Positions 42,788 through 52,711 of a DNA stretch of 64,000 nucleotides are shown one piece after another (positions within the stretch are counted from its first letter, which is position 1; each line of letters opens with the position of its first letter). The notes below the pieces were generated by a model. That model made no database searches, was not told where the DNA came from, and saw only the letters and a list, made by a program, of their open reading frames with translations. The translations under genes were made by a program, and so were the position numbers. Source of the stretch: Escherichia phage MLP3; the sequence record OK148440. One strand, written 5' to 3'.

Positions 42788-42863
42788 TGGTGCACCCTAC
42801 AGGACTCGAACCTGTAACCAACGACTTAGAAGGTCGCTGCTCTGTCCGTTGAGCTAAGGGTGC
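42788..42863 (-). tRNA. tRNA-Arg, anticodon UCU
   Basis: hand-folded cloverleaf: acceptor GCACCCU/AGGGUGC, D-stem GCUC/GAGC, anticodon loop CUUCUAA, T-arm ACAGG-UUCGAGU-CCUGU, encoded CCA. Confidence 0.85.
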
Positions 42864-47291: not shown

Positions 47292-47501
47292 TTAATCAAT
47301 TAAACTAAACGATTTCCAACTACGTGTAATTGCTACCTTTTCGCCATCAAAGAGAACACTTACAGAGATCAGTTTACCGCGACAACTGGATACCGTGGTA
47401 ATACGTCCGGTTAATGCCTTACCTTTATTCAGGTAGTGATAGCGGACACGACGTCCTAACAAACGAGTAGCTTTCTTCTCTAACGTGCTTAAGCTGGTCA
47501 T
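47292..47501 (-). CDS. hypothetical small protein
   Basis: ORF only. Confidence 0.4.
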   Translation of the reverse strand: MTSLSTLEKKATRLLGRRVRYHYLNKGKALTGRITTVSSCRGKLISVSVLFDGEKVAITRSWKSFSLID

Positions 47502-47722
47502 TAAATAGCCCCTTTATATTGGAGTGATCTTACACGACGATACATAACAGTTGATGCACTAATCGCCGCTTGTTTTCTTTCGTGCTCATGCTGATTCTTT
47601 CGAATCTTATCCATCTCGGCATCATTACGACGACGTTGTAAGATTCTGCTACATTTGCGATGGTTATTATTAGCACGTGCTTTCTTACAGATAGGGCACA
47701 AATGGGATTGAGTTAAGATCAT
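47501..47722 (-). CDS. small basic CxxC protein
   Basis: HLCPICKK...HRKCSR. Confidence 0.4.
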   Translation of the reverse strand: MILTQSHLCPICKKARANNNHRKCSRILQRRRNDAEMDKIRKNQHEHERKQAAISASTVMYRRVRSLQYKGAI

Positions 47723-47943: not shown

Positions 47944-48050
47944 GGTGTTTATCTCTTTTTAGTTTCTTTGATTAGCACACTGAATCAATGCACTAGTAAA
48001 AGAAAAAGGCGCTACCCTTTCGAATAGCGCCTCATGTGTTTTATTGTTGG

Positions 48051-48953
48051 TTATGCTGCCAGTTGACGCGCCGCCATAATCTCGGCAGCTTTGCGTAACA
48101 CTTCCTCTTCTTCCTGCGCAGCTTTCTCATTAGCTTTGACAGTTGAAGCGTTTGAGATACGACCGCGAAGGTTAGACAATTTTTCAGTCATTTCATTGAT
48201 CACCTTTTCCATTTCATCGGCGTACGAGTCCAGAGATTCAAGCTCTTTAGTTGAGGCATTAATCAGGTAGTCATCGCTGATAGAAACAGTTGAAGCGGTT
48301 ACTTTCTTAAGGAGTGAATCGAAAGTTTTCTTAACTTTGCCTACTTCTTCACTCAATGCGATAGTATTGTCAGAAGATGCGCCGTTGCGTTCATCTGCCA
48401 GTAGTGCCGCTTCAATACGGATTGCAGCCAGACGGTCAACCAGTGCATAAATATCCTGATTAAAGTTTTCGTTAACCTTCTGGTTGATCTGGTTTGCTAC
48501 CGGAACATTGTCGTTGCAACCTTTGTAGAATGCTGGGTTATCAACCTGCACGTCTTCACCTTTAGCAAAGCGTTCAAAGGAATTAGACCAGCGGGCGCGG
48601 TTTTGTTCCATTTTGGCCTTAACTTGTTCCGGTTTAGCATCCTCTTTCGCTTTCGCTTCACCTTCCAGATTAATCCATTTCTTTTTACCGTTCGCCCCGT
48701 CGCTGTTGTACTTGATCGGGGTTAAGAAAGAGATGGCAACCGCAATCACGTCTAAGTCACGATAACGCTCAGTTAACAAGAAATCAACCGCCGCCTGCAA
48801 TACATCCAGTTTCTTACCGTTGGTGCGGAAGTGCTGCAAATGGCCTAACAGGAAGTTAGAAACATCTTGTTTGATTGCCGCGTTGTTGCTACGAATGTTG
48901 TTAGCCAGTGCATTAAAGCCGGATTCGTTAACCAGATTAAAAACTTTAGCCAT
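48051..48953 (-). CDS. hypothetical protein, first gene downstream of early promoter region
   Basis: ATG at 48953 with AAGGTG RBS (table start is GTG at 48962); C-terminal coiled coil. Confidence 0.5.
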   Translation of the reverse strand: MAKVFNLVNESGFNALANNIRSNNAAIKQDVSNFLLGHLQHFRTNGKKLDVLQAAVDFLLTERYRDLDVIAVAISFLTPIKYNSDGANGKKKWINLEGEAKAKEDAKPEQVKAKMEQNRARWSNSFERFAKGEDVQVDNPAFYKGCNDNVPVANQINQKVNENFNQDIYALVDRLAAIRIEAALLADERNGASSDNTIALSEEVGKVKKTFDSLLKKVTASTVSISDDYLINASTKELESLDSYADEMEKVINEMTEKLSNLRGRISNASTVKANEKAAQEEEEVLRKAAEIMAARQLAA

Positions 48954-49872
48954 GATATTCACCTTTCAATTGTAAGGGCACTATGCCCCGCTCTCTATGA
49001 GCTTTTTAAGTCACTATTGACTTATCAATAATCACTCAATATCAAGTAATTATTGATAAGCGAGGCGGTCTTATCAGGAGTTAACCTTGCCGCCTCCTTA
49101 TCCGTGATGTTTCATCTGGTATCTTTAATTAGTCGCTATAAATAAAGCCGACCTGATAGCGATGATCAATCATCACAATAAGGCAGTGCGTCCGACTCTA
49201 TTTAATTACTTTATCGTAACCGTCGGCAATATCGTCTACTTTGCTTTCGCTCCCGCCTATCCTTTTGTACTAACTCTCAATCGCTAACCATCGCCCACTA
49301 CGGGAGGTTATTGCGAAAGAGTCATTAGCCGTCTAATACATTGACGTTTTATATCTTTCAGCAGGTTTACTACATAAACTGATTATGTACGCCATCAATA
49401 GTGGCCTCAAATCATTCACATCGTAAACGTTCACACTAAACCTTATTGTTAAATAGCAATTTGCCACTTTTTAACCATTCACCGCCGCCCCCAATTGGGC
49501 GTTAATTCGTCGGATTTGCCTACCCTGATAAACTTCTTTCACTGTAGCACCTTGTTAGCGATGGCCGCCGCTACCCTTTAACCGTGGGCGATTAGTTTAG
49601 GCCGTTGCGTGTACTCAATGAATCCGTTTTATCAGTGGTGACGTTTCCAGTTAAGGGATTGTAAAAACTGTTTACCCTGATAATTTAGGGAGTCTTACGC
49701 CGTTTTATCTGGTATGTTTTCCGATGGTTATTATCATCCAACATATTCAACCGATATAGGAGAATGTTTAAATTGTTAAAGAGCGGTAAATCTATCAGTG
49801 TGCTTTCTCACACTATGCAACTGTTAGCCGTTGTTACGCTTTTCTTAAGCGGTGAATTGCTTAAGTGTGCTC

Positions 49873-49901
49873 ATTATGAATCATGCTGTTTTAGCTGTCA
49901 A
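49873..49901 (-). promoter_or_regulatory. sigma70-like promoter (TTGACA-17 nt-CATAAT)
   Basis: minus-strand -35 and -10 hexamers with 17-nt spacer. Confidence 0.45.
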
Positions 49902-50038
49902 CCGCTTTTTAATCTTTTTCGTCGTTCCCTTTATTGGGAGGATATATCAATCAGCTATATTTGATTGAAGATTAAGCGGTAAGGCTTAACTCGCGATTCA
50001 TATTTTTAAAGAGCGGTGTTTCTTACTGCTTGGTGAAC

Positions 50039-50066
50039 ATTCTATCAGAGTGTTTCACCTTGTCAA
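50039..50066 (-). promoter_or_regulatory. sigma70-like promoter (TTGACA-16 nt-TAGAAT, TG-extended) within repeat unit
   Basis: minus-strand hexamers; CCGCTCTTTAA about 22 nt downstream. Confidence 0.4.
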
Positions 50067-50197
50067 CTCTTTTTATCATCTTCTTTTATTCTATTCCCTT
50101 ATCTCGCTTGAATCTATGCGAAAGGGCAAGATGATAAATTGTTAAAGAGCGGGGCACTAAGTGCCGGATGTTTCAAGTCATCGCTGACCGTGTGAAC

Positions 50198-50225
50198 ATC
50201 TTATCATAGTGATTCGATGTGTCAA
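50198..50225 (-). promoter_or_regulatory. sigma70-like promoter (TTGACA-16 nt-TAAGAT, TG-extended) within repeat unit
   Basis: minus-strand hexamers; CCGCTCTTTAA about 46 nt downstream. Confidence 0.4.
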
Positions 50226-50286
50226 CAACTATTTTTCGATTAATGCATCTTGATAAACTAGCGACCATTAAGGCCGCTAACCTACC

Positions 50287-50487
50287 TCAGTTCATACGTT
50301 TAAAGGTTAAATCTTTATCCGTACTTACCAGCGAAAGCACCGCAATAGCTTTGCCTTTATCGGCATCGGCTACCATCTCTTTAGCTTGCTGTAGCGTACT
50401 ACCGACTATTCTCATAATCATGTTAGTAACGTTAATGCTAGTGCAAGTGATTTGCGTGTCTTTGCTTGAGAAGGTGTAAATATTCAT
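50287..50487 (-). CDS. hypothetical small protein inside early regulatory region
   Basis: internal ATG at 50487 with GAGGA RBS; lies between promoter-like repeats. Confidence 0.35.
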   Translation of the reverse strand: MNIYTFSSKDTQITCTSINVTNMIMRIVGSTLQQAKEMVADADKGKAIAVLSLVSTDKDLTFKRMN

Positions 50488-50836
50488 TGATAAATCCTCA
50501 TTATGGCATGGTTGGGAGTTTATCAAGATACACTAATCAGATTCTTAAAGAGCAAGGCTAAACATCTAGCCTATCAGGAGGTAATTTACTGCGTCACGTC
50601 CTGACAAGATTCAATATACACTATCCTAAAACCGTTGCAAGCCTTTTTCTAAAATAATTTCACTTTCTTTTAGGCATAGAGGAACACGCGCACGAATAGC
50701 ATCAAGGGAGGAAGAAAACAAGCCTTATAATCGAAAATAAGGCATACAGGAGGCGTTCTAACGAGCTAAACAGGGGCAAGATGTGCAATCACCTTAGAAA
50801 TGAAAAAAGCGCCTCAAAAGGGCGCTTAGGGAAGTT

Positions 50837-52683: not shown

Positions 52684-52711
52684 ACTATATATTAAAGGAA
52701 AAACCTGTCAA
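52684..52711 (-). promoter_or_regulatory. sigma70-like promoter (TTGACA-16 nt-TATAGT) upstream of 51776-52639 gene
   Basis: minus-strand hexamers about 45 nt before ATG. Confidence 0.4.

Follow-up and report, generated by a model that had tools for sequence, protein, structure and literature searches.

We analysed the 1.88 kb spacer at positions 48954-50836 of a 64,000-nucleotide stretch of Escherichia phage MLP3 (sequence record OK148440; the whole stretch is called the window below, and all positions refer to it). In our view the spacer is likely to harbour an early transcription unit that is built like a ribosomal RNA (rRNA) operon of the host: read on the minus strand, it would be antiterminated by Nus factors and make a folded, untranslated RNA together with gene 124. 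The features that we computed directly are the promoter matches and the matches to boxA (the antitermination signal of rRNA operons), the conservation of boxA, an RNA fold that is supported by covariation and specific to one strand, the lack of coding capacity and the occurrence of these elements among phages.

Promoters and boxA signals

A sigma70 consensus scan of the window (with start sites predicted from the hexamers) finds its three best matches in the spacer, all on the minus strand. They coincide exactly with the three promoters that an original prediction, made from the sequence without database searches, had placed there: P1 at 49873-49901 (TTGACA-17-CATAAT, 11/12), P2 at 50039-50066 (TTGACA-16-TAGAAT, 11/12, extended TG) and P3 at 50198-50225 (TTGACA-16-TAAGAT, 10/12, extended TG). 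P1 is present in 18/18 aligned phages and is the promoter closest to the structured RNA described below; P3 is conserved in relatives as well. The distance from P1 to the gene-124 ATG (48953) amounts to 920 nucleotides (nt), in line with the predicted promoter about 900 nt upstream of the first gene. A fourth candidate, upstream of boxA copy 4 (50613-50640, minus strand, TTGCAA-16-TATATT, 9/12) is weak and uncertain, scoring no higher than chance matches in shuffled sequence. The promoters themselves are not new, since the SU10 genome paper already describes three promoters in the spacer, "like phage phiEco32", expects them to be recognized by the sigma70 holoenzyme and counts the spacer region among the early genes (PMC4281155). 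The suggestion of an early regulatory region driven by sigma70 thus agrees with what was reported for phiEco32 and SU10, where the same three promoters are found.

The original prediction also listed a repeat, TTAAAGAGCGG, in four copies. By its sequence this repeat is the reverse complement of boxA, the signal that is bound by NusB/NusE in rRNA operons. The window contains exactly four copies of its core (GCTCTTTAA), always on the minus strand and at the four predicted positions (49776, 50006, 50142 and 50545), against 0.9 copies expected by chance (1 out of 100 shuffles reached four); the fourth copy reads TTAAAGAGCAAGG in place of ...CGG. On the transcribed strand the repeat reads (C/T)GCTCTTTAA(C/A/G)AA, and all four copies fit the gamma-proteobacterial consensus GYTCTTTAANA that was used here (PMC5725501) without a mismatch, each of them on the transcribed strand. 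The consensus has five matches in the window where 0.62 are expected (none of 100 shuffles reached five), and four of these are found on the transcribed strand within 780 nt.

Each of P1, P2 and P3 is followed on the transcribed strand by a promoter-proximal boxA. Copy 2 (50004-50014, minus strand, GCTCTTTAAAA) starts about 18 nt after the predicted P2 start, copy 3 (50140-50150, minus strand, GCTCTTTAACA) about 41 nt after that of P3, and copy 1 (49774-49784, minus strand, again GCTCTTTAACA) about 81 nt after that of P1, with the first long-range helix of the RNA following 2 nt later. One half of the repeat had indeed been expected in the initially transcribed region. Copy 4 (50543-50553, minus strand, GCTCTTTAAGA) is likewise a perfect consensus match. 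The context of copy 3, CCGCTCTTTAACAATTTATCA, is identical over 21/21 nt to the leader of E. coli rrnA, in which the order is P2, the boxB hairpin GCCGCUGAGAAAAAGCGAAGCGGC and then CCGCTCTTTAACAATTTATCAG (the rrnA leader was taken from one E. coli record, found with the 51-nt context of boxA copy 3 as query). No boxA accompanies the early promoter at 52711, from which translated genes are transcribed with a leader of about 40 nt.

The boxA copies are well conserved. In the window and 14 related phage genomes there are four to five perfect copies each, all on the transcribed strand, with flanks that differ widely between the phages, and nearly every strong promoter of the spacer has a boxA downstream. 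A comparison of the repeat units among relatives, which had been put forward as a check, therefore shows perfectly kept boxA copies in these 14 genomes and also in the eight distant relatives treated below. In total, perfect copies next to variable flanks were seen in 26/26 related genomes. The presence of boxA here is a new instance of a known device.

At copies 1, 3 and 4 a hairpin is located directly 5' of boxA, that is, in a boxB-like position; copy 2 has no obvious hairpin. The hairpin at copy 4 (AGGCTAGATGTTTAGCCT, 50555-50572, minus strand) is conserved in SU7, PAS59, TH43 and NC-B, and the one at copy 3 (GGCACTTAGTGCC, 50153-50165, minus strand) is followed by CCGCTCTTTAACAATTTATCA in the order known from rrnA. 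Copy 1 is preceded on the minus strand by H1 (49833-49818, helix 1 of the consensus fold) and the boxB-like H2 (49814-49797, AGUGUG-AGAAAG-CACACU, helix 2). The three outer base pairs of H2 covary fully among the phages, and its conserved purine loop resembles the loop of rrn boxB (GCCGCUGAGAAAAAGCGAAGCGGC). Hairpins with an AGAAAG or GUAGAAA loop and covarying stems stand 12-15 nt from boxA copy 1, also in the distant relatives. The second half of the repeat that had been predicted, AACATCTATCAGAGTG-like sequence paired with the first half, is real in the form of direct-repeat families D3 and D8. It corresponds to the extended -10 region at P2 and P3 and to the 3' side of the hairpin plus spacer at copies 1 and 4.

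Evidence for a structured RNA

Judging from its covariation, the leader between P1 and gene 124 is a conserved and highly folded RNA, not a mere spacer. We aligned 18 distinct phages from the -35 hexamer of P1 to the gene-124 ATG; the leader measures 943-962 nt in these phages, with few indels and a mean column identity of 89%. None of the open reading frames (ORFs) in the leader is conserved on either strand among the aligned phages, and on the transcribed strand no ORF of at least 30 amino acids is conserved. Two phages lack any ORF of at least 30 amino acids on either strand, and the small ORFs of 10-20 amino acids are not universally kept. A coding leader was rejected given this lack of a conserved ORF.

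The leader RNA of the window folds with a minimum free energy z-score of -5.6 against shuffled sequences (-4.3 for the opposite strand). For the 18 phages RNAalifold predicts 246 pairs, 73 of them with compensatory double changes. After removal of the pairs that touch untranscribed promoter columns, 234 pairs in 38 helices were left and scored against shuffled and slid controls. Of the cells in these pairs 99.0% are paired, against 92.6% in the shuffled and 34-48% in the slid controls. Changes on both sides are seen in 73 of the 234 pairs (40.8 shuffled, 5-10 slid) and in 294 cells (80 shuffled, 10-20 slid), at a covariation score of 0.271 (0.139 shuffled, 0.036-0.068 slid). The idea of a long structured leader or non-coding RNA, which the original prediction had raised, is thereby strongly supported.

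The fold is also specific for one strand. The minus-strand RNA contains 468 G-U cells against only 20 A-C cells, which shows that selection acts on one RNA strand and not on duplex DNA. Likewise, the alifold energy is -249.8 kcal/mol in the sense direction and -160.5 kcal/mol for the reverse-complement alignment when folded independently.

The recurrence of the heptamers CTGATAA and TTATCAG, noticed before, is a true enrichment, as four of the 24 copies in the window fall within the leader of about 800 nt, where about 0.14 are expected. They are stems and loops of the RNA and not independent protein sites: the heptamers make up helix strands and loops, and CUGAU at 49633-49629, for instance, pairs with AUCAG at 49529-49525 in helix 10.

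None of the Rfam 15 covariance models (GOLLD, ROOL, 6S, tmRNA and riboswitches included) matches the region at its gathering score, and even at E-values up to 10 the best scores are 12-20 bits, where the thresholds lie at 34-167. A known RNA family was therefore rejected. The sole Rfam or ARAGORN match in the whole window is a tRNA-Arg gene (anticodon TCT) at 42788-42863 on the minus strand. In the literature searched, which did not take in the primary phiEco32 papers (Savalia 2008, Pavlova 2012), no paper joins boxA with phiEco32, and neither the BASEL paper nor the 2025 gp79 paper mentions boxA or a non-coding RNA. As far as Rfam and this literature show, the covarying RNA of about 800 nt is undescribed.

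Architecture of the RNA

Once the untranscribed promoter columns are removed, boxA copy 1 (columns 124-134 of the alignment, A1) is unpaired in the consensus fold; in transcripts from P2 and P3, RNAalifold pairs it with the -10 region of P1. Two large domains follow, each closed by a long-range helix that spans about 280-300 nt. Domain I (49470-49772, minus strand) comprises helices 4-16, and its closing helix pairs columns 137-150 with columns 426-440, the 5' strand starting 2 nt past boxA copy 1. Domain II (49175-49449, minus strand) comprises helices 19-29 and is closed by columns 461-470 with 736-745.

Directly before Domain II, hairpin H17 and an overlapping invariant boxA-like sequence occupy 49447-49469 on the minus strand. 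This internal boxA-like sequence (GCUAUUUAACA, 49447-49457, minus strand) deviates from the consensus by a single mismatch at position 4 and is kept as GCUUAUUUAA or GCAUUUUAAC in the distant relatives. Position 4 is one of the two sites altered in a boxA double mutant that abolishes association of SuhB at suhB (PMC5725501).

The 3' part of the RNA consists of a row of eight hairpins (48975-49174, minus strand, helices 30-38). All on the minus strand, it includes a hairpin with an invariant 21-nt loop, CAAGGUUAACUCCUGAUAAGA (49096-49062), a 16-bp AT-rich hairpin (49060-49021) and, in the consensus fold, a conserved hairpin at 48989-48975, which lies 13 nt before the Shine-Dalgarno sequence. 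The ribosome-binding site of gene 124 is unpaired in the consensus fold.

We also observed a complementarity of 14 nt (93%) between the region of boxA copy 3 (50156-50143) and the 3' end of the RNA (48997-48984), both on the minus strand. Such pairing could produce a 1.15-kb leader-trailer or an 'anti-boxA' in transcripts from P3. It has no covariation support, and phages of the PAS59 type alter the 3' partner without compensation.

Distribution among related phages

The window belongs to a phiEco32-like podophage of the Gordonclarkvirinae. In total 97 phage records match the region, all of them E. coli or Shigella phages (Kuravirus, Suseptimavirus), with Bas86 as the closest match (98.6%). 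The stretch of 951 bp from P1 to gene 124 is found in 97/97 records at 76-100% identity, and in most of them there is no annotation under it; in phiEco32 the region corresponds to a gap of about 1.9 kb without annotated genes between genes 124 and 125. The size of 1.9 kb given by the original prediction fits the whole spacer (48954-50836), but the interval stated with it, 48963-50610, covers 1.65 kb.

More distant relatives were found via protein homologues of gene 124 (45-70% identity) in a protein database, followed by a look-up of the contigs. The resulting set consists of eight uncultured contigs (among L173-L182) of 3.4-100 kb, which show little or no called coding sequence over about 3-4 kb upstream of the gene-124 homologue (none at all in 5/8). 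In all eight the transcribed strand has two to three perfect copies of boxA, and the other strand has none. The last boxA lies 870-971 nt before the ATG and is preceded by a purine-loop hairpin. Except for one pair (79%), the eight leaders are only 43-65% identical to each other and to the window; they have diverged beyond detection by BLAST, yet keep the layout of boxA, hairpin and a folded RNA of about 900 nt.

Since a MAFFT alignment of the distant leaders, at 43-61% identity outside the 79% pair, is not trustworthy, we used covariance models of sub-domains instead. With the model of the Domain II core, L176, L182 and L181 are recovered with compensated stems, the three E-values being 8.6e-27, 7e-20 and 1.4e-10; the five most distant of the eight contigs were not reached. 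The model of the Domain I core places four distant relatives at the expected colinear position, though weakly (E-values 0.002-0.5). Three distant leaders that were folded have z-scores of -6.3, -4.1 and -5.6. Inspection further reveals landmarks common to the distant leaders, namely AUCGCCCACG...GGG, CGCUCAAUUG.GAGCG, UAUGUAGU(A/G)AA, CCC.UAGUGGG(C/U)GAUG and the internal boxA-like sequence.

Other searches returned no further relatives. An exact 18-mer scan of IMG/VR gave known genomes and unrelated chance matches only, a scan of metagenomes with an invariant 20-mer gave close relatives (89-95% identity) and chance matches only, and a search of IMG/VR with the gene-124 protein gave close relatives only. 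Salmonella phage 7-11, which is now placed in another family, has no boxA in its early region.

Promoter-boxA cassettes in other phages

In T7 (NC_001604) a perfect boxA, GCTCTTTAACA, is found at 813-823, 63 nt past the A3 start and before gene 0.3. We then scanned IMG/VR for cassettes of a consensus -35, a loose -10 and GCTCTTTAA within 10-40 nt, and obtained at least 120 loci. Among the matches listed, 102/127 have an A at boxA position 11 (most read CGCTCTTTAACAAT), which indicates that the cassettes are largely real boxA and not chance matches. The distance from the cassette to the next ORF, again among the matches listed, has a median of about 200 nt and exceeds about 400 nt in a quarter of the cases. 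We checked 14 listed loci with long ORF-free stretches, and arrays of tRNA genes follow in 8/14. On a 364-kb contig (L082; 1-1134) the cassette is followed by tRNAs and then by a GOLLD RNA (190.8 bits). Other listed loci are on L081, L101, L121 and L091. Some cassettes carry a GAGAAA-loop hairpin before boxA, as on the 108-kb viral contig L106, whose cassette region has no match in the phage collection. From these sequences, it appears that virulent phages commonly use promoter-boxA cassettes to drive untranslated transcription units. Among the units examined, that of the Kuravirus phages is the most elaborate.

Terminators and flanking genes

The upstream border of the spacer is an intrinsic terminator at 50807-50827 on the minus strand (AAGCGCCCTTTTGAGGCGCTT then TTTTTCATTTC), at the end of the upstream early operon (homologues of genes 128-125). 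Downstream, the terminator scan finds none between the structured RNA and gene 124; the first good terminator is located after gene 124 (48006-48033, minus strand), where a terminator is annotated in SU7 as well, and is the probable end of the transcription unit.

The upstream part of the spacer contains an ORF for a protein of 66 amino acids (MNIYTFSSKD..., 50287-50487, minus strand). The stretch, described before as having no long ORF, is thus not wholly non-coding. With its good ribosome-binding site, its annotation in SU7 and PAS59 and a variation that in seven phages is mostly at apparently synonymous positions, the ORF is probably a real gene. The protein has no Pfam or PHROG match. The gene is bracketed by the arms of a 31-nt inverted repeat (I1; 84% complementary), both on the minus strand: the 5' arm at 50508-50538 starts 5 nt after boxA copy 4, and the 3' arm is at 50238-50268. 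Both arms are invariant in seven phages, and they would form a long-range stem that encloses the small gene. This order of boxA and repeat arm is the same layout as that of boxA copy 1 and the closing helix of Domain I, and the stem is long enough for a candidate RNase III site.

Gene 124 is the first translated gene of the unit after the RNA. With its ribosome-binding site (AAAGGTGA) it covers 48051-48967 on the minus strand (ATG at 48953) and encodes 300 amino acids. The AlphaFold2 model of gp124 is mostly helical (predicted local distance difference test score, pLDDT, of 76.8) and has no fold match in the PDB (best E-value 1.1); gp124 belongs to no Pfam family and matches only a PHROG of unknown function. 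For seven neighbouring proteins Pfam gives nothing, and PHROGs gives families of unknown function, apart from the gene-125 homologue, which receives a doubtful label as 'terminase'. In the comparison with phiEco32, identity is 92% for the leader and 74% for gene 124, while against PAS59 and NC-B the leader is 78-79% and gene 124 94-96% identical. This reversal of the identity pattern implies that leader and gene 124 are separate recombination modules.

Discussion

All elements listed by the original prediction are present at the given coordinates, and its interpretation is partly supported. As we see it, the tandem sigma70 promoters P3, P2 and P1 (perhaps with the weak fourth one) would fire once the DNA enters the cell, and boxA on the nascent RNA would recruit NusB/NusE of the host and, with them, NusA, NusG and SuhB. 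Under the influence of these factors RNA polymerase would become fast and resistant to Rho-dependent termination. The modified polymerase would transcribe about 830 nt of untranslated RNA, go on into gene 124 and reach the terminator at 48033-48006; it may also help the long-range helices to form right after boxA, as has been proposed for rRNA. The folded RNA would then be a functional RNA product or an RNA domain of the early transcript. In this scheme we infer the binding of Nus factors, antitermination, the transcript ends, any processing and the function. There are precedents for the steps that involve boxA: the rRNA antitermination complex needs it for assembly and for the recruitment of the factors, and boxA also suffices for both (PMC10250234); CRISPR arrays are among the other long untranslated RNAs that it shields from Rho (PMC7665894; review PMC12360218).

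A number of points weigh against this scheme. By inspection, a GU-rich boxC is not evident, and elsewhere boxA can promote termination or repress translation, for example at suhB (review PMC12360218). Moreover, most of the RNA is G-rich and not C-rich (a C/G ratio of 1.4-1.6 is confined to the first 160 nt or so). Being tightly folded in addition, it may be a poor substrate for Rho anyway, in which case boxA may be there chiefly for something other than protection from Rho. Finally, because gene 124 always follows the RNA and no terminator intervenes, the RNA could act in cis only.

If the RNA were freed from the gene-124 message, it might represent a new class of large, ornate phage RNA of about 800 nt that acts in trans, which we propose tentatively. 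As such it could serve as a scaffold, a decoy or a component of a ribonucleoprotein in host takeover or counter-defence. The RNA is conserved throughout the Gordonclarkvirinae and in their uncultured relatives, and it would be made in the first minutes of infection by the Nus-antiterminated unit of the rRNA-operon type. Promoter-boxA cassettes would then be a general signpost to undiscovered non-coding RNA genes in virulent phages.

A purely cis-acting role of the folded RNA, as a 5' untranslated leader that serves the stability, processing or translation of the gene-124 mRNA and does nothing in trans, is doubtful. The position of the gene-124 ribosome-binding site directly after the RNA in 18/18 phages and in all eight distant relatives would fit such a role, as would the missing terminator in between and the conserved hairpin at 48989-48975, only 13 nt before the Shine-Dalgarno sequence. 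Nonetheless, about 800 nt with 38 conserved helices far exceed the needs of known leaders, the RNA and gene 124 recombine independently (as seen from PAS59 and NC-B versus phiEco32), and with the ribosome-binding site unpaired in the consensus fold no obvious switch is apparent.

Two further explanations concern boxA itself, and both seem improbable to us. According to the first, the cluster of four to five boxA sites on abundant early transcripts would be mainly a sponge for NusB/NusE/SuhB that, in the course of host shut-off, deprives the rRNA operons of the host of antitermination factors. Several perfect copies per transcript behind near-consensus promoters, one of them identical to the rrn leader over 21 nt, could be read in this way, and boxA transcripts from multicopy plasmids reportedly titrate a host factor (Friedman and colleagues, 1990). 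A sponge, however, leaves unexplained why each boxA has the canonical promoter-proximal position and why about 800 nt of covarying structure follow. In addition, T7 manages with a single copy, and in phiEco32 gp79 already shuts off host transcription.

According to the second, the sites would be lambda-like nut sites, where a small N-like phage protein binds the purine-loop hairpin and brings about a phage-specific antitermination that is also effective against intrinsic terminators. The conserved, covarying hairpin with AGAAAG or GUAGAAA loop at 12-15 nt from boxA copy 1, shared with the distant relatives, would suit this, as would an arginine-rich early protein of 73 amino acids that is encoded just downstream (47501-47722). 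Furthermore, the early genes beyond gene 124 can be reached only past the terminator that follows it, unless they are served by a downstream promoter that is annotated in SU7. The hairpins are nevertheless found 5' of boxA as in rrn operons, whereas lambda nut has boxB on the 3' side; copy 2 has no obvious hairpin; the boxA sites match the full rrn consensus, which functions without N (PMC10250234); and 0/7 neighbouring proteins (these seven only) match an N family in Pfam or PHROGs. The 73-amino-acid protein, on the minus strand, contains a CPIC motif; its arginine-rich stretch, RILQRRRNDAEMDKIRKNQHEHERKQ, bears a loose resemblance to the arginine-rich RNA-binding motifs of N-type antiterminators.

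Least of all do we expect a phage replication origin, also raised by the original prediction. In that case transcription from the promoters would activate replication or supply an RNA primer, as with ColE1 RNA II or the T7 primary origin, and proteins would bind to the repeats. The region is long, poor in genes, equipped with strong promoters and situated near a genome end, which might suggest an origin (and ColE1 RNA II, a folded RNA of several hundred nt, does prime replication), but the cumulative GC skew has no inflection here, the repeat analysis of the region yielded neither iterons nor DnaA boxes, the repeats turn out to be boxA, promoter elements and (for the heptamers) paired strands and loops of the RNA, and selection acts on one strand as judged from both the G-U against A-C counts and the folding energies.

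If the operon-like scheme holds, a virulent phage copies the control logic of the rRNA operons of its host (tandem promoters, boxB-like hairpin and consensus boxA), repeated for each promoter. The region would then offer a natural system to study the part of the Nus complex in the folding of a non-ribosomal RNA. A practical search rule for phage non-coding RNAs is also suggested, namely promoter plus boxA plus ORF-free stretch, and in roughly a hundred Kuravirus genome records the "empty" 1.9-kb spacer can be labelled.

Comparison with known systems

The closest parallel is the leader of the E. coli rRNA operons. Both have tandem strong sigma70 promoters and, a short way past the start, a hairpin with boxA behind it, and the boxA context is identical to that of rrnA over 21 nt. 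Both are followed by a long untranslated and highly folded product, with the 5' strand of a long-range helix right after boxA. Even the second set of boxB, boxA and boxC before 23S (PMC10250234) has a counterpart in the boxA-like sequence before Domain II, although the latter is mismatched at position 4. In contrast to the rRNA operon, the phage RNA has no homology to rRNA and is followed by a translated gene, and the phage has one boxA per promoter (four to five copies) and no recognisable boxC.

T7, also a virulent coliphage, has three early promoters of the host type in tandem (120-170 bp apart) and a perfect boxA before its first early gene, in the order A1, A2, A3, boxA, RNase III site R0.3 and gene 0.3. 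It differs in having a single boxA after the last promoter, a leader of about 100 nt from boxA to the gene and no large conserved RNA structure. Lambda nutL and nutR also show how a phage uses boxA and host Nus factors for termination-resistant early transcription. Their boxB lies 3' of boxA and binds the required N protein, whereas order and consensus in the present region are of the rrn type. The boxA of lambda, CGCTCTTA, is sub-consensus.

A consensus boxA before a long untranslated RNA is also known from CRISPR arrays (Stringer et al. 2020, PMC7665894) and the suhB leader (Baniulyte et al. 2017, PMC5725501), where it stops premature Rho termination (PMC7665894, PMC5725501), as proposed here. 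These are host loci with a single boxA, and the RNA downstream is a repeat array and not a folded domain RNA.

Finally, GOLLD and ROOL (RF02032; PMC5737381; bioRxiv 10.1101/2024.12.08.627333) are phage-carried non-coding RNAs of about 600-800 nt that, like the present RNA, have an elaborate structure supported by covariation. In one jumbo-phage contig a promoter-boxA cassette even precedes tRNAs and GOLLD. The Kuravirus RNA differs from both in sequence and shows no covariance-model similarity to them; moreover, it resides in an early operon of E. coli podophages, away from tRNAs, and is fused to a protein gene. GOLLD, ROOL, OLE and other large structured RNAs have long been a puzzle, and most of them occur in organisms that are hard to handle or in uncultured phages. 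The RNA presented here is carried by lytic phages of E. coli. According to the BASEL paper, some of them (Bas86-Bas94 of that collection) plate on E. coli K-12 in which the O-antigen has been restored, so that deletion, probing, pull-down and cryo-electron microscopy are immediately possible.

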